A DNA stretch of 64,000 nt. Source: an uncultured Planctomycetaceae bacterium (GTDB lineage Bacteria > Planctomycetota > Planctomycetia > Planctomycetales > Planctomycetaceae). The stretch spans positions 1 through 64,000 of the forward strand of contig CAWFAK010000018.1 of assembly GCA_963813715.1 (NCBI GenBank). The letters are read 5' to 3'. A program made the translations under genes and the position numbers. The notes under the pieces are model-generated. The model did no database searches and was not told the origin of the DNA. It saw only the letters and a program-made list of their open reading frames with translations. Shown here piece by piece: positions 4,155 to 22,706 of this stretch (the first letter of the stretch is position 1; each line of letters begins with the position of its first letter).

Positions 4155-7100
4155 TCACGCCGCGACGGTCAGCGTGAAGGTCTGCGTCACGTCTGTATCG
4201 ACGCCATTCATCGCGGTGATCGTGATCGTGTAAGTGCCGGCCGTCCCGGCATCAGGCGTGCCGCTGAGCAAGCCCGTCGTGTCGTTGAAGGTGACGCCGG
4301 TGGGCAGCGCCCCGCCTTCCGCGAACGTGGGCGCCGGGAAGCCGTTGGCGGTCACGTTGAACGAGCCAAAACTTCCCTGCGTGAACGTCGTTGCATTGAC
4401 GCTCGTGATCGACGGCGCTTGGAGCACGACCAGCGTGAACGATTGCGGGGCTCCCGTGCCGGCCGCGTTCATCGGCGTGAACTGCAGCGAGTAACTCCCG
4501 CCGCTGCCTGACAGGGGCGTTCCGCTCAGCACGCCGGTCGTGGTGTCGAACGACAGGCCGCTGGGCAACGTGCCCGCCTCCGCGAACTTCGCCGCGGGGA
4601 ATCCGCTGGCCGTGACGGTGAAGGTGCCGCTGGTGCCGACGGTGAACGTTGCGGTATTCACGCTCGTGATCTGTGGGACTTCGTTGACGACGAGCGTGAA
4701 GGTCTCGGTGGCGTTGGGGCTGACGCCGTTAGTGGCCGTGATCGTCACGGGGTACGAACCGCCGGTGCCCGTCTCCGGCGTTCCGCTGAACGTGCCGGTG
4801 TTGGGGGTAAAGGAAACGCCCGTCGGCAGCGTTCCGCTTTCGCTGAGGGAGACGATCGGAAATCCCACGGCCGTCACGTTGAACGATCCCGGCGTGCCGA
4901 CGGTAAATACCGTGGTGTTCGCGGTCGTGAACGTCGGCGCCTGGTCAACGAGCAACGTGAAGACTTGGGTCACGCCGTTGCCAACCGAGTTCACGGGCGT
5001 CAGGTCGAAGGTATACGTGCCGGACGTGCCCACCGCGGGAGTGCCGCTGAAGACTCCGGTCGTCGCGTTGAAGGAAACTCCGTTGGGCGGAGTCACCGTT
5101 CCCGTGAATATGGCGGCCGGGAATCCATTGGCCGTGACCGTGAACGTGCCGTTTTGTCCGACGATGAACGTCGTGCTATTCGCGCTGGTGATTGACGGCA
5201 CCTCGTTGACAACGAGGGTGAAGGTCTGGCTCGGTCCGGTGGCCACCGCGTTGACCGGGGTAATGGTCAACGAGTAGAGACCGCCGCTGCCGGGAAGCGG
5301 TGTCCCGCTGAGCGCGCCCGTGCTGTCGTTGAAAGAAAGTCCGCTGGGCAGAGTACCGCTCTCGGTGAAGGTGGGGGCCGGAAAACCGCTCGCCATTTCA
5401 GTGAAGGTTTGCGTCGTGTTCACCATGAAGGTGGCAGTCGCCGCGCTGGTGATTTGGGGAGCCTGCTGGACGACGATCGTAAAGATCTGCCCCAGGCCCA
5501 CACCGACGCTGTTCACCGGCGTGAAGGTGACCGAGTCCGTCCCGCCGGTGCCGGGCAACGGCGTGCCGCTCAACACGCCGGTCGGGCTGAATCCCAGCCC
5601 GGGAGGCAGCGTGCCGGCTTCATTGAAGGTCGGTGCCGGAAAACCGGTAGAGACCAACGAGAACGTGCCCGCGGTCCCCACGGTAAAGGTTGCCGTGTTG
5701 GTGCTCGTGATATTGGGAAGTTCGTCGACGATCAGCGTGAAGGTTTGCGTGACATTTGGGCTCGCACCGTTTGACGCCGTGAACGTCAGCGTGTACGTGC
5801 CGCCGGTCCCGGTCGCGGGCGTGCCGCTGATGGAGTCGGTTCCGGCGTTGAAGGAGAGCCCATTGGGCAGCGTCCCCGACTCGCTCAAAGTCGGCACAGG
5901 ATTTCCGGAAACGGTCGCCGTGAAGGTGCCTGCCGTCCCCACGACGAATGTGGCGCTGTTCGCGCTGGTGATCATCGGCGAAGTGACGACAATCAGATTG
6001 AAGTCCTGGTCGGCCGTCGCGCCTACCCCGTTCGAGGCGGTGAATATCACCGGGAAGGTGCCGATCGTTCCGCCGATCGGTGTGCCGCTCAGTACGCCTG
6101 TCGTGTCGCTGAACGTTACTCCCACCGGCAGGGTGCCGCTCTCCGTGAATGTCGGTGCCGGGAAGCCGGAGGCGGTCACGTCGAACGTGCCAGCAAGCCC
6201 GGCCGTAAACGTGGCTGCGTTTGCGCTGGTGAACGCCGGCGACTGATCGACGATCAGGCCAAAACTTTGAGTTGCGTTCGGGCTGAGGCCGTTGGCGGCG
6301 GTGATCGTCAACGGATAGGTGCCGCCGGTGCCGGTCTGCGGCGTTCCGCTGAGCGCGCCCGTTGCGTCGTTGAAGGTCACGCCGTTGGGCAGCGTTCCCG
6401 TTTCGCTGAAGGTTGGCGTCGGAGTGCCCGTCGCCGTGACCGTAAAACTGCCCGCGGTGCCGACGGTGAACGTGGTGCCGTTGGCGCTGCTGATGACTGG
6501 GGCCTGGTCGACAATGAGCGTGAAGGTCTGCGTCGTCCCCGTGCCGACGGAGTTGGAGGGCGTGAAGGTCAGGTCGTACACGCCGACAGTGCCCGCTTGC
6601 GGCGTTCCGCTGAGCACGCCCGTCGATGGATTGAACGAGACGCCGTTGGGCAACGTGCCGGTTTCGGCAAAAGTTGCGTCGGGAAATCCGTTGGCGGTGA
6701 CGGTGAACGTTCCGGCGACTCCCGTGGCGAAGGTGGTGCTGTTATTGCTGGTGATCGACGGCGTTTCATTGACTACGAGCAGGAAGTTCTGCGTCGCGTC
6801 CGGAGTCAAGCCGTTGGTGGCCGTGAACGTGAGATTGTAAATCCCACCACTGCCGGTTGAGGGTGTGCCGCTGAGCACGCCCGTGGCATTGCTGAACGAC
6901 AAACCGACCGGGAGCGTGCCCACTTCTGTGAATGTCGGTACGGGCATGCCGCTTGCCGTCACGGTAAAGCTGCCGTTTGTGCCGACCGTAAACGTCGTGG
7001 TGTTCGCGCTGGTAATTGCCGGGGCCGCGTTGACGATCAGCGTGAAGGCCTGCGTGGCTGCCGGGCTGACGCCATTCGCCGCGGTGATCTGCAGCGGATA

Positions 7101-13115: not shown

Positions 13116-13948
13116 ATGTCCCCCAATCGGCAACTGTTTAACGAGAATTTTCCCCGGGCTTCGCAATACAACCCCGAATGGGTCCTGGCTCATGCCAGCG
13201 GCGGGGCCAATTCGCTGTGGCTGACGGAGTGGCTGACGAGCGCGCTCGACTTGCGGCCCGGGATGCGCGTGCTCGACCTGGGCTGCGGCCGCGCTTCCTC
13301 ATCGATCTTTCTGCGTTGCGAATTCGGCGTACAGGTTTGGGCGACCGACTTGTGGTTCAGCGCGGGCGAGAACATTCAGCGGATCCGCGATGCCGGCGTG
13401 GATGACGGCGTCTTTCCGCTGCACTGCGACGCCCACTCGCTGCCGTTCGCGCCGGAGTTCTTTGACGCCATCGTGTGCATCGACTGCTATCCCTACTTTG
13501 GGACGGACGATCTTTATCTCAACTATCTGGCCCAATTCGTGAAGCCCGGACGCCCGATCGGCATTGCCGGCGTCGGACTGATGCAGGAGATCGAAGGGGG
13601 AGTTCCGGAACATCTGCGGCCGATGTGGGGCCAGGATTTTTGGTCCATTCACTCGGCCGGCTGGTGGAGGCGGCACTGGGAACGGACGGGCATCCTGGCG
13701 ATCGACGTCGCGGACAATATGCCGGACGGCTGGCATCGCTGGCTCGAATGGCAATACGCGGTTGCGCCCGACAATGCGGCGGAAATCCAGGCGCTTGAGG
13801 CCGACGCTGGCCGAAATTTCGGCTACATCCGCGTCGTCGGCCGGCGGCAAAGCGGCGTGAAGCTGGAAGAATATTGCTGGCCGGACGCTCTGCGCTCCTT
13901 CCCCAGCAGTACACGAAAAAGCCTTTGCTCCGCGGCGATAATTCTTGA
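13116..13948 (+). CDS. Class I SAM-dependent methyltransferase (probable frameshift near 13900)
   Basis: LRPGMRVLDLGCGRA motif I; DAHSLPFAPEFFDAIV. The natural-looking end YTKKPLLRGDNS* is in the shifted frame; the uncorrected ORF runs to 14021. Confidence 0.85.
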
Positions 13949-14067
13949 GTTGCCGGTCGGATCTCGCGGACGTGCGCTTGCCATTTTCGCGGGCGGCAAA
14001 TGTTGCGATTGGTTACAATGACCCGCGTTCGGTTGACCCTTCAATCCTCTCTCGGAGGAACGCCCGC

Positions 14068-14459
14068 GTGTCGACCACCATCACCATCCGCGACGAGACG
14101 ACCACTGGCGAGTCGGCCAACGAGTGGACGCTCGAAGTTCTCTCCGAATCGATGACCGTGCGCGAAATCATTCGCAGCCGCGTCTATCAGGAAGTGCAGG
14201 ACTACAACCTGCAAAACGCGGGCGAGTTCCGCGGGCTCGTGCAGCCGGCGCCGCCCAGGAATTGGTGAGCGGACTCAGTCGCCGAAAGACGCCCATCGAT
14301 TGGCATGAGCAATTCGACAAGGCGATCGAAGCCTTCGAGAAGCGGCAGATTCTCGTGCTGGTCAACGATCGGCAGGCAGCCTCGCTCGACGAGTCGTTTC
14401 AGATCGGGCCCAAAACGGTCGTCTGCTTCTTGCGACTCACCCTGCTGGTCGGCGGCTGA
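14068..14459 (+). CDS. About 130-aa putative ubiquitin/MoaD-like (beta-grasp) protein ending in LVGG; frameshift near 14255
   Basis: GTG start 8 nt after GGAGGA; joins ORFs 13945-14268 and 14124-14459; C-terminus ILVLVNDRQAASLDESFQIGPKTVVCFLRLTLLVGG*. Confidence 0.75.
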
Positions 14460-14483
14460 CCTTTATCGCTGAGGGCGACGGAA

Positions 14484-17243
14484 ATGGAGCCGTTCGATTC
14501 CGAGTCTCGGCGAGCCTCCCCGTCGGACGATCAACGGCACACTGCGGCACCGATCGACAGCCCGAGTTCGGCGCCCGATGCGGCGTCGTCGGGGGCCGAG
14601 CGCCTGCTACACGCGTTCATCGTGCGGACGATCGGCAAGCCCCTCGCAGGAGATCCTCCCGGCAAACGGTAAAACGAGCGAGGACCCCGCAGCGCCTACC
14701 GTCATGTCAGCGTTACTCTTCGACCGGTATTTTGGATGGTTTGCCCTCATTCCACTGCGTCTCAGAGAGCCGCTCCTCAAGGAAACGCCGGAATGGAACG
14801 AGGCCATGGCCCTGAGCCCTGATGGTCGGTCGCAGGTCGTTCGCACGGCGATCGGCGTTCTGCGATCGCTGCAATCGGGGCGGTTTGCCGTTTTGGCGGA
14901 GGTTGGCGGTGCGCGGCCCGAGCTTCGACATGCCGACACGTTGCGGGCGAACGCTCAGGCCTTTCGCGTCGTGTCCTGCCTGCTTGCCGCGCTGCTCAAA
15001 GGCAAACTGAAGTCGACCGACGCCGATCTGACCGAGCTTGTTTTGCTGGCCGCCGACAGGACGCCGGGTTCGGGGCTGCTCATCCCGGCCGTTCCGATCG
15101 TGGTCGCGCTGGAAAAATTCTGTGCCGCGAACGTCCCCTCCGAAGCGCTCTGCGAAGCGTGCCGAAAGTTTCAGGGGCTTGTTCCGGCGAGAAATCGCGA
15201 GTACGGCCGGCTCGAAAAAATCATCGCTTCGCGGCAAAAGGATAACAGCAAGCCGGCGATTCCAATCACCCTCGAGCCGGGCGAGCCTTGGTCGGAAGCG
15301 GCACTCGCCGCGCTGGCCGCCCTGCCTGAGGATGAGTGTCGCAAGTGGGTCGAACTGTTGAGCCATTGCCAGGGGCTTTCTGCCGCGGCTCCCTCGAAGA
15401 AATGGCGCGACGACGCGGTCAAACGGGTCGATGCGGTCGGTCTCGACGCGTTCCGCACGCGAGTCGGCGAATGGTTTGGCCTCTACGTGAAGACCGACGC
15501 AAGCTCGCCGCTGGCCCCGTACAGCATCAATGAGGTCGTCGATCGTGCGGCCCGTCGCGCGATCATCCGCCGCGAGCACGACAATCTCCTCAAAGGGCTG
15601 GCCTGGTGCTGTGGCCAGTACGACGACGAGCGGATCGCCGAGGCGGTCCTCACGTTGGGGCTGACCGCGTACAAAAAGATCCCCAACATCGGACCGCTTT
15701 CGATCAAAGTCGGGAACGCGGCAATCGGGGCACTGGGTGCGATGCCGGGGACTCATGGAGTCGGCCGCCTTGCCGTGCTGCAAGCCAAGCTCAAGTCGCC
15801 CTCCGGACGCAACATGGTCGGGAAAGTGATCGCAGCGGCGGCCGAGCGGCTGCAGATTTCCGAAGGCGATCTCGACGAACTGGCAGTTCCCGCGTACGGG
15901 CTGGGCAGGGGAGGAGTTCGTCGACAAACGCTCGCGGGCGTTACCGTCGAACTCGCTATCGTCTCCTCGACCGGGGCGGAATTGCGATTCCGGCGCGGAC
16001 GACAAACCGTTGAAGTCGGCTCCGACCGAGATTCGCCGCAATCACGCCAGCGATCTTAAAGAGCTCAAAGCCGCGGTCAAACAAATCGAAACCAGCCTGG
16101 GGGCCCACCGGCAACGACTCGACACGCTGTTTCGCCGCACGAAGTCATGGGACTATCCGACCTGGCGGGCCCGCTATCTCGACCATCCTCTGTTGGGAAC
16201 GCTCGCACGGCGATTGATCTGGCGGTTCACGCGCGGCGACGAAAACCACGCCGCGATTTTCCACGACGGCCAATTGGTCACGGCCGACGACACGCCACTC
16301 GCGGCCCCGCTCGAACAGTCGACCGTCACGCTTTGGCACCCGCTCGAAGAACCACGCGAACGCGTCGCCACCTGGCGCGACTGGCTCGAACGCCACCTGG
16401 TGCAGCAGCCGTTCAAGCAGGCGCATCGGGAGATTTATGCCCTCACCGACGCCGAGCGCCAGACGCACACCTACTCGAACCGCTTTGCCTCTCACATTGT
16501 GCGACAGCACCAGTTGAACTGCGCTGTGCGAATCGCGCGGCTGGCAGAGCCGCCTGCTCTTGTTGCACGCCGATAACGCCTTTTTTCCGCCGAGGCTCGC
16601 GCTCCCCGAGTGGAACCTGCTGGCCGAATTCTGGGTCAACGAGTCGGACATGGCGGAAAGCCAGATGGGAGTCGCCCTGCATTTGGCGACCGATCAGGTC
16701 CGGTTCTATCACGCCGATCGCGACGGCGCCGTCGGCGACCCGGTGCCACTCGAAGAGGTCGCCCCAATCGTCTTTTCGGAAGTCATGCGCGACGTCGACC
16801 TGTTCGTCGGCGTCTCGAGCATCGGCAACGACCCCACTTGGGCCGACGGCGGTGCCGTCCACCGGAACGCGGAAGCCTGGAATGCCTTCGCCTTCGGCGC
16901 ATTGTCCGAATCGGCCAAAGTGCCGCAAAGAGGTGCTGGAGCGAATCATCCCCCGCCTGCAGATTGCCGAGCGGTGCACGTTCGAGGGGCGATTCCTGAT
17001 CGTGCGCGGCGACCTATGACCTACAAAATTCATCTCGGGAGCGGCAACATCTTGATGTCTCCCAACGATCAGTACCTGTGCATCGTGCCCGACCGATCCT
17101 CGACGACCGCCGCGACGGGCCCGATTTATCTTCCGTTCGAGGGCGACGGGATGCTTTCGATCATTTTGAGCAAGGCTTTGCTCCTGGCGGACGACAAGAA
17201 GATCAAAGATCCGTCGATTCGCGCACAGATCGCACGCTCTTGA
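14484..17243 (+). CDS. DUF4132 domain-containing protein, about 920 aa reconstructed (about five frameshifts near 14645, 15995, 16520, 16922, 17015)
   Basis: LDELAVPAYGL, WRARYLDHPLLGTLARRLIW, LWHP...WRDWLERHLVQQPFKQAHREIY, FSEVMRDVDLFVGVSSIGNDPTW, YKIHLGSGNILM...YLCIVP, LPFEGDGMLSIILSKALLLADD. Confidence 0.85.
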
Positions 17244-17360
17244 GGTGACGCTCGAGTTTCGGCCGAATCCGCATCGCCGCGAGAGAGGCCGAGGCATCGT
17301 GCACGTCCGCTCTCGGCACGATTGATTTCCGAGTCGTCGCGTTCTGAATGCGGCCCGTTC

Positions 17361-17400
17361 AAAAAAAAGCGGAACGCCGGACGTTTTCCGGTCGTTCCGC
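17361..17400 (-). terminator. Intrinsic terminator of the surface-protein gene
   Basis: Minus strand reads GCGGAACGACCGGA-AAACG-TCCGGCGTTCCGC followed by T8, 36 nt after the stop at 17437. Confidence 0.8.
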
Positions 17401-17436: not shown

Positions 17437-20400
17437 CTAAGACACCGTCTCTTGCAGTGCGGCCGAGGTGCTCGCGGCGAAGTTGGCGTCGCCGCTGTAT
17501 TTCACGGTGATCTTATAGGTGCCGGCCTTCTTGAAGGTGACCGGCAGCGTGGCTTGCCCCTGGCTGTTGATGGCCACTGTTCCCAGCGCCGTCGAGCCGG
17601 AGTAGAACGTCACCGTTCCCGTTGGAGCGACGCTGCCGGACGCGGTCGGCACGACCGTGGCCGTAAAGGTCACTTGCGTGTTGGCCGGCGGATCGCTGGG
17701 CCCGCCGACGCTCGACGTCGTTGCCGCCTTGTTCACCTTCTGATTGATGGCGATCGAGGTGCTCGTGCCGAAGTCCGTGGCTCCCTGGTAGACGGCGGTG
17801 ATCGAGTGGGTGCCGACTGCCAGTGACGACGTCGAATAGGTGGCCTGGCCGGAGCCGTTGAGGGTGCCGGGGCCGAGCTCCGTGCTGCCATCGTAGAAGA
17901 TGACCGAGCCGTTCGGCGTGCCGCTGCCCGGGGTCTTCACCGTGACCGTCGCCGTGAAGGTGACGTTCTGCCCGAAGGCGCTGGGGCTGCCCGACGACTT
18001 GACCACCGTTTTGGTCACGGCCTGGTTCACCGTTTGGCTAATCGCCGTCGATGTGCCGCCGACATAATTGCCGTCGCCGCTATAGACGACGGTGATCGAG
18101 TTCGAGCCGAGCGGCAGGCCGGACGTGGAATAGGTGGCCCTGCCCGAGCTGAGCGTTTCCTGCATCAGCGGCGTGCTGCCGTCGTAGAACGTCACCGTTC
18201 CGGTCGGCGTGCCGCTGCCGGGGCTGGTCGAAGCCACGATGGCAGTAAAGGTGACCGACTGGCCGAACACGGTGGTGGCGTCCGAGGTCTTGACGCTGAT
18301 CGCGGCGGGATCCGCCTTGACCGTCTGCGTGAGGATCGCGGAGGTGCTCGTCTCAAACTTCGTGTTGCCGGAATAGACCGCCGTGATCGAGTCCCCGCCG
18401 ACAGCCAGGGCAAAGGCGGTCGTCGTGTAAGTGGCCTTACCCGCGGTGCTGAGGGTGACGGTGGCTAACACCGTGGTGCCGTCCAAGAACTGGACGCTGC
18501 CGGTCGGCTTGGTCGAGCCAGTCACCACCGGGGCGACGGTGGCCGTAAACGTCACCTTCTGTCCGTAGGTGGAAGGATCGACGCTCGCGGCCAGCGTGGT
18601 GGTCGTCGCGCCGACGGACCAGGAGAAGGCTTGAGTCGTGCTGGCTCCCTGGCCGTCGCTGGCCGTGACCGAGCTGGCATACGTATTGGGCGAGCCGCTG
18701 ATTGTGCCGGTGATCAAGCCGCTACTGGCATTGATCGACAGGCCGCTCGGCAAGCCGCTGGCCGAATAGGTCCACGTGTCGCCCGTCGGCAAACCGCTCG
18801 CATGAATCTGCAGCGAGACGGCGGCCCCGAGGGCGCTGTTCTGAGAGCCGGGATTCGTCACCGAGAGCGTCGACACGTTCCAGGTAAAGCTCTGGCTGAC
18901 GCTGGCGCCTTCGCCATCGCCGGCCGTCACCGACGGCGAGTATGTGTTGGCCGAGCCGGTGATTGTGCCAGTGATCAACCCGCTGCTGGCATTGATCGAC
19001 AGGCCGCTGGGCAAGCCGCTGGCCGAATAGGTCCACGAATCGCCGCTGGGCAAACCGCTCGTCGCAATCGCCAACGAGACAGAGTCGCCCGACTGCGCCA
19101 TTCTGCGTGCCCGGGTTGGTCTCGGAGAGGACGGAGACGTTCCAGGTGAAGCTCTGCGTCGCGCTGGCGCCCTCACCGTCGCTGGCGGTCACCGAGGACG
19201 AATACGTGTTTGCCGAGCCCGTGATTGTGCCGGTGATCAACCCGCTACTGGCATTGATCGACAGGCCACCGGGCAAGCCGCTGGCCGAATAGGTCCACGA
19301 ATCGCCGCTGGGCAGACCGCTCGTCGCGATCGCCAACGAGACGGAGTCGCCCACTGCGCCATTCTGCGTGCCCGGGTTGGTCTCGGAGAGGACGGAGACG
19401 TTCCAAGTGAAACTCTGCGTCGTGCTGGCGCCTTCACCGTCGCTGGCCGTCACGGCGGACGAGTACGTGTTCGCTGAGCCGGTGATCGTGCCGGTGATCA
19501 AGCCGCTGCTGGCGTTGATCGACAGGCCACTGGGCAAGCCGCTGGCCGAATAGGTCCACGAGTCGCCCGTGGGCAGGCCGGTGGTCGCGATCGCCAGCGA
19601 GACGGAGTCGCCGACTGCGCCGTTCTGAGTGCCGGGGTTGGTCTCCGACAAAATGGAGACGTTCCAGGTGAAGCTTTGGGACGGCTCGTCTCCTTGGCCG
19701 TCGTTGGCGGTGACTGTCGCCGAGTAACTTTCGGCAGAGCCGGTGATCGTTCCCGTGATCAGACCCGAGCTCGCATTGATCGACAGGCCGCTGGGCAAGC
19801 CGGTGGCGGAGTACGTCCAGGTGTCGCTCGGGGCCAGGCCGCTGGCCTGGACTTGCAGCGAAACCGTATCGCCCACGGCGCTGTTTTGCGTGCCCGGGTT
19901 GGCAACGGCGGGCACGTATTCGTCGTAGGCGGTCGAAGTTCCGGTCGTGAAGTTCAAGTCCCCGCTATAGACGGCCGTGATGACGTTGGTGCCGCCCGGC
20001 AGGCTGGAGACGTTCAGAGTCGTGGTTTGGTCGGGATTCGGATTGGCCTCGTTGTCGAGGTTATTGAGGTTAGCGGTCCCCAGCAGCGTGCTGCCGTCGT
20101 AGAACGAGACCGTGCCGATCGGCACGAACGACGAGCCGTTGGGCGAGACGGTGGCGGTCAGGGTGATGCCGGTCCCTTGGCTGATCGGATTGGCCGAGGA
20201 CGTAACGCTCGTGGTCACGGTTTCGAGCACCGGCTCGTCGAGGATCGTTTGGCCGGGCGAATAGGTCGAATCGCCGCTGTACGAGGCGTAAATGTGATAG
20301 TGGTCCGCTACCAATCCGGAAACCTGAATCGACGCGACACCGTCGACAATGTTGGCCGTGCCGATCGGGACGGCCGTGGTGTCGTAGTTGAGCGGGTTAT

Positions 20401-22453
20401 TGGCGCCCTCGTAGTAACTGAAAGTCACCGTGCCGGTCGGCGTGGGGCCGCCATTGGTCGAGGCGAGTGTGGTCGTGAGCGTGATCGTGTTGCCGACGAC
20501 GGCGGGATCGACCGACGGAGCCGTGTTGATCGTGTAGTTCGTGTAGCCGCCTTCGGCAAACAGCTCCCCGCCGTTGTCGGAGAAGATTTCGCCGTTGGGC
20601 GCGATGGCCGTCGGCGTGTAGGGGACGCCGATGCCCGACGTGACTTCGACGGCGTCAGTGACGGTGTTGGTGCCCAGGTTCCACTCGTAGGTGTAGCCGT
20701 CTTCGTTGTTCATGAAGACGCTGTCGGTGGCCGGATCGACGACCGTGCCGTTGGTGCACCACTCGCGGACTGCGTCAGGGTCGCCGGCTTGGACGGCCGG
20801 CACGTCGGGCGAAGGGCTGGTGAAGGCCTCGACCGTGGCCATCACCTTGAAATTGGGATTGGGAAAACCGGGGTTCGGATTGTTGGGGTCGTAATTGGGA
20901 TCGGGGACAGCGGAATTCGGGTCGAGCACGGCGATTTCATTCACGCCGTTGTCGCCGTAATCACCCGAGTTGGGACCGCCGAAATCCGCGTTGGAGTAGT
21001 TGTTGTATTTGGAGAGGATCAAGTAGGTCGAAGTGCCGGTATAGGACGGGACCATCGACGCGGGGATGATCGAAGGCGTGTCGTCCCAGCCGAAGGCCCC
21101 CGGCGTGTACTCGGTGCTCAAGTCGCCCGAAAAGTGGAGCAGGTATCCGCGGGAACCGTTGTACGGATTGCCGAAGACGCCCTGGAAAACCGTGCCGTCG
21201 GGAGCAACCATCGGACTGGCCGTGCTCTCGTCGATCAGGCCGGCCCCTTGGCCGCTTGCGGGATCGAGCAGCTGCACCGAGGACACCGGCGCCATCGTCG
21301 TGGTGTTGAATCCGACGAGGTAAGAGTTGTATTCGCCGTTGCCGTTGAGCCCGTAGCCCGAGTCGTTGATGCCGAAGTAGACGATCGAGCCGTCGTTGCT
21401 GACCGCCGCCGAGGCCCCTTCAGCCGGGTTCCAGTTGCCGTCGTTGGACTGCCCGACGGCCGAGTAGGCCAGCGTGTCGGTGGCGACTCCCGAGGGAGTG
21501 ACTTTCACGACGCCGCCGTCGGTGATGCCCGAGGGATTCGACCCCGTCACGGTGAAGCCGAAGTAGACGTTGCCCGCGCTGTCGATCGTCAAACCGGTGT
21601 TGGTGTAGATCGATGAGTTGTAGGCCGATTCGTTGGCCAGGTAATTCGACGTGCCGTAGAACGCCTCCTGCACGATGGTCGGCGTCCCGGCCTGATCAGG
21701 ATTCGAGATGTAATCAAGCGTGCCGCCGGGGCCAGCGAAATAGACGCGGTTGGTCCCCGCGTCGTAGACCGGCTGGTAGGGGGGGAGCCAGCCGTAGTTC
21801 GGCTCGATGTAGCTGGTCTGGTTGGACGGGTTGAGGACCCACGTGCCGCCGCCGCTGTACGCTCCGTTGCCGCTCGTGCCTTGCAGCTGAAACGAGTTCG
21901 CGGTCACGTCCTCGATGGTAAACGTGCCGTTGGCCGCCGTATTCCCGTTGACGCCGCCGATCGTCACGCTGTCGCCGTTGACCAGACCGGTCGTCGAGCC
22001 GCTGATCACGATCGGGCCCGCGTTGCTGGCGCCGGTAATGGCGCCGGTCGGCTCGGTCGTCCACAGCACCTGGCCCGTGACGTCGTTGACCCCCTCGAGG
22101 AAAAAGTTCTGCGCGTTCTGGTCCTGCGCGCTCCAGGTGACCTTGATCGGGACAATCACGGTGTTGTTGGAGGTGAAGATGGGATCGCCATAGTGTTCCG
22201 CGCCCCATGGTTCCAAGTCGAGCGACACCGACCACAACACTTGATTGAGGGGCTGCGCCACGGCCTGCGACACACCCGTGTGCTGAGCGTTGCCGTTGAG
22301 CTGGTTCCAGACCGTCGCGGGGATGGCCGGCGTCGTCGTGCTCGCCGAGAGCAGCGCGCGATCCTCGAGTTGCTCGATCGCCGGCGTGTAAGCAGATCTA
22401 CGGACGGCCCGCTTCGTACGACGCTTCGGAAACCAGCGCAGCTGCAAAACCAT
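17437..22453 (-). CDS. Large secreted protein: LEPRxLL-type leader, propeller-like domain, Ig-like group-3 domains and five He_PIG-like repeats; frameshift near 19089
   Basis: RRTKRAVRR...IEQLEDRALLS; PTGTVTFYDGST...ITAVYSGD repeats; NPGTQNGAVGDSVSL...GLPSGLSINASSGLITGT repeats. The extra base is shown by a 262-bp versus 261-bp repeat spacing. Confidence 0.85.
18612..19910 (-). repeat. Five tandem 261-bp repeats, the central three highly similar at DNA level
   Basis: Marker GCCGAATAGG at 18761, 19022, 19284, 19545 (spacings 261, 262, 261). Confidence 0.9.
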
Positions 22454-22706
22454 GAAACTGTTCCCTGGGGCCCGCAAGGAGTTCAGTCAGAGAAAGATGA
22501 ACTCGACCAGCCTACGAAGCGGCCCGACCCTCAGCAAGCAGCCATTTTGCAATTTTGGGCAATCTGCGCAGACTGGTGTTCGAACGATCACGCGAGCGAG
22601 TCCGCGGACGCGAAATTGCCGAGGAATTTCGCCCTGGCGGACGGATTACAAAACCGTTTTGTTCCGGCGGCGTCACCTTCGCGATGGTCGCCAAACATGA
22701 CGGCGA

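Follow-up and report, generated by a model that had tools for sequence, protein, structure and literature searches.

A predicted beta-grasp ubiquitin-like protein with a terminal Gly-Gly is encoded beside a large DUF4132-DUF7737 protein in Planctomycetota

The first 64,000 nucleotides of contig CAWFAK010000018.1, from an uncultured Planctomycetaceae bacterium (GenBank assembly GCA_963813715.1), are referred to here as the window. At 14068 to 17243 the forward strand carries two adjacent genes, the first predicting a small ubiquitin-like (Ubl) protein that ends in Gly-Gly (GG), and the second a large protein that includes DUF4132 and DUF7737 domains. The features of this locus are listed below by window position.

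14056 to 14061, + strand: ribosome-binding site GGAGGA, 6 nt upstream of the small gene's GTG start, as seen in the letters themselves.
14068 to 14459, + strand: Ubl gene, predicting a 130-aa beta-grasp ubiquitin-like protein that ends LVGG before the stop; one base is absent after 14247.
14484 to 17243, + strand: DUF4132-DUF7737 gene with a 919-aa product; five indels near 14649, 15992, 16520, 16923 and 17015.
16013 to 16522, + strand: DUF4132 domain (Pfam PF13569, E 2e-45), containing the invariant QPFKQAHRE..Y..T..E..T...SNR...H.
16918 to 17231, + strand: DUF7737 domain (Pfam PF24879, E 9e-28), alpha/beta, with a weak likeness to the E2/UBC fold.
17079 to 17081, + strand: TGC codon of the conserved Cys in the YLCIVP motif of DUF7737.

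The small gene opens with GTG at 14068, is read in frame 1 up to approximately 14247 and thereafter in frame 0 of the window letters, and closes with GGC GGC TGA at 14451-14459 (GG codons 14451-14456, stop codon 14457-14459). Its translation ends ...CFLRLTLLVGG. The large gene starts with ATG at 14484, 24 nt past the stop of the small gene, and its 3′-end is at 17243. A preliminary description, made from the sequence alone, had reported a gene of about 130 aa with a ribosome-binding site and a VGG end, followed after 24 nt by a DUF4132 gene of about 920 aa, and the sequence, Pfam and the orthologues all agree with it.

As assembled, the pair is interrupted by six indels, all but one of them in the large gene. 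Logan contigs from four public runs, belonging to four studies, were mapped onto 13900-17400. An extra C after 14247 is present in all four runs. One letter fewer is found at 14649 and at 16520 (3 runs each) and at 16923 (2 runs), while GC is inserted after 15992 and G after 17015 (2 runs each). All six frameshifts are assembly errors and both genes are intact in nature, because the run contigs correct the sequence, the orthologues in the same-genus genome G004 are unbroken (130 aa and 886 aa), the six pieces of the large gene align collinearly, at 97-100% identity, with one public protein of 919 aa (P0270), and rpoB of the same genome is itself split over four frames (G000:C9:452772-456471). 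Indel errors are frequent in the assembly (18 contigs, 82.6% complete), where ThiF-family genes are also broken, and frameshifts in the window are therefore to be suspected as artefacts before a pseudogene is called. Gene decay was considered as an explanation of the six frameshifts and was ruled out by the split rpoB, the run contigs and P0270. The single indel repaired in the preliminary description is that of the small gene and stands; the five in the large gene had gone unmentioned. Contigs from RNA libraries (runs X5 and X14) also span the locus, but are not evidence of transcription and were not counted as expression.

The small protein was modelled with AlphaFold2 using the intact G004 orthologue, which is 86-87% identical to the window pieces, and an alignment of 120 diverse relatives (mean per-residue confidence, pLDDT, 79; predicted TM-score, pTM, 0.70). 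Strands are predicted at residues 3-11 and 16-24, with a short strand at 28-30, followed by a helix at 31-48. A 44-aa insert lies past this first helix, and in this middle part residues 51-72 are disordered and a further helix occupies 79-91. The C-terminal part has strands at 95-99, 110-112 and 118-123, and ends in a tail (127-130) of low confidence, with pLDDT below 50. In the model the small protein adopts a beta-grasp (ubiquitin/MoaD-like) fold with the order beta-beta-alpha-beta-beta-beta and a flexible free GG tail, which assigns it to this superfamily at the level of fold. The top structural match is MOCS2A/MoaD. The beta-grasp fold had been foreseen from the letters, as had the beta-beta-helix layout and its insertion of about 45 aa, and the model and the structural matches bear them out. 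Sequence comparisons gave no such assignment. Pfam has no family for the protein at E ≤ 0.1 (window pieces) or E ≤ 0.01 (intact orthologue), ThiS/MoaD included; neither the small nor the large protein is matched by NCBIfam; and phmmer against PDB sequences returned two rows at chance level only for the small protein.

The small protein belongs to a large family, with 1125 proteins recovered by one query and 6277 by a profile, and with 1282 clusters at 50% identity reaching E ≤ 1e-3. Its members are without a Pfam family or name, and sources that label them say 'hypothetical'. Scanning one genome per species yielded 57 loci, every one of which belongs to Planctomycetota. In 55 of these the small protein ends in GG, and the remaining two are frame-broken records. 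GG, Q103 and F121 are invariant in all 120 of the aligned representatives, which were chosen for full-length matches and are thus biased toward a complete tail. A DUF4132 gene on the same strand adjoins the small gene in 56 of the 57 loci, with the Ubl gene leading in 37 and the DUF gene in 19, and in the sole exception, a 3.3-kb contig, the sequence breaks off a short way upstream of the small gene. This pattern of tail and adjacency is beyond chance, and the conserved terminal GG and the two-gene module proposed at the outset are thereby upheld. The pair is patchily distributed: of 61 related genomes 7 carry it, and within the genus 3 of 12.

There is no third conserved gene. The commonest other neighbour cluster (prepilin-like) occurs in 7 of the 57 Planctomycetota loci, and in the 80 loci of a sister clade, defined below, the commonest is likewise seen in only 8. 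In the 57 + 80 loci the pair has no linked E1, JAB or other partner, and genes for molybdenum cofactor (Moco), thiamine or cysteine synthesis or for a rhodanese are not conserved beside it. A tblastn search for a linked ThiF-type E1 found no match in 61 + 80 loci, with the sensitivity limited by the use of two query fragments from the same genome. ThiF-family genes lie at three unlinked places in the genome. The neighbour survey and this search agree with the preliminary description, in which E1, JAB, Moco and thiamine genes were noted as missing.

Both Pfam domains of the large protein score above their curated cut-offs, at 155 bits for DUF4132 and 97 bits for DUF7737 in the window pieces, and 179 and 140 bits in an intact relative. 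In an alignment of 51 full-length relatives, invariant polar residues are numerous in the C-terminal half, and the motifs SE..RD.D, H.GS and PF.GD are invariant together with the DUF4132 motif given above. Residues 440-886 of the G004 protein were modelled with AlphaFold2 at pLDDT 90 and pTM 0.85. Foldseek found no meaningful match in the PDB for these C-terminal 447 residues, and VIA-align gave three partial likenesses. The large protein appears to consist of four parts: a helical N-terminal half, the DUF4132 core, an alpha+beta domain that is TBP/KA1-like, and at the C-terminus DUF7737, of UBC(E2)-like shape.

In its AlphaFold2 model DUF7737 has a helix, four to five strands and three helices, in that order, with the Cys past the last strand. 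E2 chains recur among its structural matches, at a likeness within the range that VIA-align calls common. The DUF7737 profile has 0 matches to PDB sequences at E ≤ 10, in a Pfam scan at E ≤ 10 DUF7737 was the only family seen in more than two of the 46 members, and the ESM Atlas gave no usable match. In the order of its predicted secondary structure elements DUF7737 resembles the E2/UBC, UEV and RWD folds, but it differs from E2 in having no sequence similarity and no established HPN motif. The Cys is present in all 51 readable Planctomycetota loci, as well as in Chondrinema and Deinococcus radiodurans.

The sister clade comprises giant DUF5724-DUF4132-DUF7737 proteins. Scanning of metagenome contigs with their C-terminal region gave 80 loci, of which 56 have both the tail and the Cys position readable; no Ubl was found in the other 24, which are mostly short and cut upstream. 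The residues at the Cys position, sorted by type of Ubl tail, are as follows.

Tail ending GG before the stop, 12 pairs: C in 6, F in 4, V in 1, W in 1.
Tail ending GA before the stop, 2 pairs: F in 1, W in 1.
Capped tail, G-x-x-aromatic (AGSYW, SGRLW), 42 pairs: S in 27, A in 8, N in 3, H in 2, L in 1, P in 1.

The Cys is therefore absent from 50 of the 56 proteins and present in 6, and an alignment of 18 chosen loci supports the Cys column. A Cys and a capped tail never occur together, and half of the pairs with a free GG lack the Cys. Large or thiol residues accompany short tails and small residues accompany tails with an aromatic end, so that the position resembles a contact site. Three quarters of the sister-clade pairs lack a free GG and the genes nonetheless remain linked. 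The core function of the family thus needs neither the free GG nor the Cys, because these pairs stay together although 42 of 56 tails are capped and 50 of 56 partners are without the Cys. For the same reason, the conserved core function cannot be GG-dependent tagging, and the earlier suggestion of conjugation is not borne out.

Capped tails (AGSYW, SGRLW, AGRMW, GGLW) with Ser, Ala or Asn for Cys were seen in L097-L167, from metagenome contigs, and in L082, L084 and L085, from Bacteroidota replicons. Single loci depart from the pairing. An orphan Ubl on the minus strand of L168 (G041:C1:1744500-1753500, open reading frame 4842-5249) ends LVAG rather than LVGG; genome G041 (one contig, 94% complete) is devoid of DUF7737 and has no DUF4132 gene within 4 kb of this Ubl. 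Conversely, a mobilizable Acetobacter plasmid with a MOBF relaxase (L081, 2226-2745 and 3096-6446) carries a Cys-less DUF4132-DUF7737 gene beside a BrnT/BrnA-like toxin-antitoxin pair, and the gene upstream of it encodes an unrelated 132-aa protein and no Ubl. Both fit the picture of tail and DUF7737. In a Sedimentisphaerales metagenome-assembled genome (L058, 10156-10548) a second, diverged Ubl lies directly past the DUF4132 gene, so that the genes run Ubl-DUF-Ubl′, and this copy ends ...NVPKIEKI, without GG.

The pair also turned up outside Planctomycetota when plasmid and secondary-replicon records were searched by tblastn, in Chondrinema and Fulvitalea (Bacteroidota), Nonomuraea (Actinomycetota), Novosphingobium (Alphaproteobacteria) and four Deinococcus species. 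The D. radiodurans pair is DR_A0165/DR_A0166, with the genes 3 nt apart. DR_A0165 is 134 aa, ends LAGG before the stop, and aligns end-to-end with the family profile (hhalign probability 98.5%, E 1.6e-15). DR_A0166 contains DUF4132 and DUF7737 and retains the Cys (FLCIVP), but is 1626 aa long with a DUF5724 N-terminal region, compared with the 919-aa large protein at the window locus. These two proteins belong to the same two families as the window pair and are the only member with experimental data. Depletion of DdrO, the repressor of the DNA-damage response, strongly induces the drA0165-drA0166 operon, and in the available text of that study moeA and moeB do not respond with it (PMC8533742). 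DR_A0165 has been described as the 'small ORF peptide' SEP068184, the level of which increases upon gamma irradiation and H2O2 treatment; the knockout survives H2O2 better, the protein binds the thioredoxin Trx1, and its predicted structure was likened to MOCS2 and SAMP1/MoaD (PMC9650054). In the available text of that report no conjugates are given for tagged DR_A0165, and the protein is termed Deinococcus-specific, without a link to DR_A0166 or to a wider family (PMC9650054).

On its D. radiodurans replicon the Deinococcus pair (L083, 167-1696; L080, 5230-9161) is located directly after two YeeE/YedE-family genes and a gene for thioredoxin TrxC, and a DUF99 gene, molybdate ABC transporter genes and thiD lie downstream. 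This sulfur- and molybdate-flavoured neighbourhood sets the locus apart from the others.

The reading favoured here, at a little under even confidence, is an obligate complex in which the small protein would be a dedicated subunit of the large DUF4132-DUF7737 protein and its tail would dock on DUF7737, in the service of a stress response. It is ranked first because the core partnership needs neither the free GG nor the Cys. That the two proteins bind each other is very probable. Whether the C-terminal tail of the Ubl contacts DUF7737, at or near the Cys position, appears about evenly balanced. By analogy with the Deinococcus orthologue the module may serve the response to DNA damage or oxidative stress, and such a role in Planctomycetota is put forward tentatively, as rather less than an even prospect. 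The GG could in addition be covalently charged in the subfamily of the window, which is possible though doubtful. Under the docked complex the role of the module would be neither Moco or thiamine synthesis nor a classical E1-E2-E3 cascade.

Several observations weigh against the docked complex. The co-variation of tail and Cys position may reflect shared descent rather than contact, because very few evolutionary events are involved; in a quick tree of the pairs, those with GG or GA group as a single clade, and 2 changes suffice to account for the tail label. Simple docking would hardly seem to require a free GG that is strictly invariant, which favours carboxylate chemistry. The proposed stress role is extrapolated from Deinococcus, and a promoter and terminator scan at the window locus revealed no regulatory site upstream of the small gene, with a single weak terminator-like site beyond the end of the convergent gene. 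DR_A0166 (Q9RYY7) is absent from the four co-immunoprecipitation/mass spectrometry tables for DR_A0165 and from the proteome table in the available supplement of PMC9650054, where Q9RYY7 appears in a reference list only. The cells used for co-immunoprecipitation were unstressed, and DR_A0166 may therefore simply not have been expressed. A complex prediction with residues 20-886 of the large protein (51-row alignment) and the Ubl (120-row alignment) scored 0.00 and counts neither way on binding.

A covalent step remains a serious rival to docking because GG and Cys are both kept without exception in the window's subfamily. In its minimal form, a housekeeping MoeB/ThiF-type E1 acting in trans would adenylate the GG, which would form a thioester on the DUF7737 Cys and then pass to targets or to the large protein. 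This is judged unlikely, given that 6 of the 12 sister-clade pairs with a free GG carry F, V or W for the Cys, so that GG is kept without it, that the 57 + 80 loci offer no linked E1, JAB or other partner, and that the E2 likeness falls in the common range of the tool and finds no support in sequence; the available account of tagged DR_A0165 likewise reports no conjugates (PMC9650054). Less likely again is a wider version, in which DUF7737 would be a highly diverged E2, and the Ubl and its large partner, with a housekeeping ThiF/MoeB-type E1 in trans, would form a minimal, stress-induced charging or conjugation pathway, widespread in bacteria and tied to DNA damage and oxidative stress, with the capped-tail, Cys-less clade as a catalytically dead UEV-like offshoot. 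Loss of the Cys in 50 of the 56 sister-clade proteins parallels the inactive UEV and RWD variants.

The structural match to MOCS2A/MoaD invites comparison with the sulfur-carrier pairs MoaD-MoaE, ThiS-ThiG and CysO-CysM, in which a free-GG beta-grasp protein is likewise encoded beside its working partner, and which work with MoeB/ThiF. By this account the GG would be converted to a thiocarboxylate by a MoeB/ThiF-type enzyme in trans and a sulfurtransferase, and the DUF4132 protein would be a sulfur-using 'synthase' like MoaE, ThiG or CysM. It is improbable. The partner here is a DUF4132-DUF7737 protein, the pair has neither linked pathway genes nor a linked E1, the Ubl has its 44-aa insert and no sequence match to Pfam ThiS/MoaD, and the capped tails of 42 of the 56 sister-clade pairs would be unable to carry a thiocarboxylate. 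Nor did moeA and moeB respond together with drA0165-drA0166 (PMC8533742). Least probable of all is an anti-phage defence or conflict system in which the Ubl would mark or detect the proteins of an invader, as the preliminary description had also entertained. The patchy distribution, the copies on large secondary replicons in several phyla and the defensive nature of the known bacterial Ubl operons Bil, Bub and CBASS type II (PMC10557695, PMC11601596) would suit it, but PADLOC matches neither protein, no defence genes are among the conserved neighbours of the 57 + 80 loci, the neighbours in the window are a methyltransferase and large repeat proteins, and the Deinococcus data point to DNA damage and oxidative stress instead (PMC8533742, PMC9650054). 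Like Bil, Bub and type II CBASS Cap2/Cap3, the pair has a bacterial Ubl with a C-terminal Gly beside a possible E2-like Cys domain (PMC10557695, PMC11601596), but in place of the operonic E1, E2 and JAB/DUB of those systems there are two conserved genes only.

Bacterial free-GG beta-grasp Ubls are known from two settings, as sulfur carriers and in defence operons that have their own E1, E2 and protease. The pair represents a third setting, with members numbering in the thousands across at least five phyla, in which the only conserved companion of the Ubl is a large uncharacterised DUF4132-DUF7737 protein. Full-text literature searches returned no mention of DUF7737, and the five papers found to mention DUF4132 do not describe pairing with a Ubl; among the matches listed for yehI, molR and DUF5724 there is no functional paper. 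The weak E2/UBC resemblance of DUF7737 with its Cys, and the capping of the tail and loss of the Cys in the sister clade, may tentatively be regarded as new here. The Deinococcus member, which is induced by radiation and peroxide and whose deletion alters peroxide survival, provides a genetic entry point. Knowing whether the tail becomes charged, and with which target, would give a function to two large DUF families, and a stripped-down ubiquitin-like pathway tied to DNA damage might be the outcome.

The genes on either side of the pair in the window complete the description of the locus. A SAM (S-adenosylmethionine)-dependent methyltransferase gene (Methyltransf_25/11) occupies 13116-14021 on the + strand and ends 46 nt upstream of the small gene, and it is not kept beside the pair in G004 or at other loci. 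On the minus strand, 17437-22477 contains two overlapping open reading frames (579 aa and 1251 aa) that predict a giant protein of secreted type in which near-identical repeats like 'SASGLPSGLSINASSGLITGTI' are numerous, and these two frames are probably one gene split by an assembly indel.

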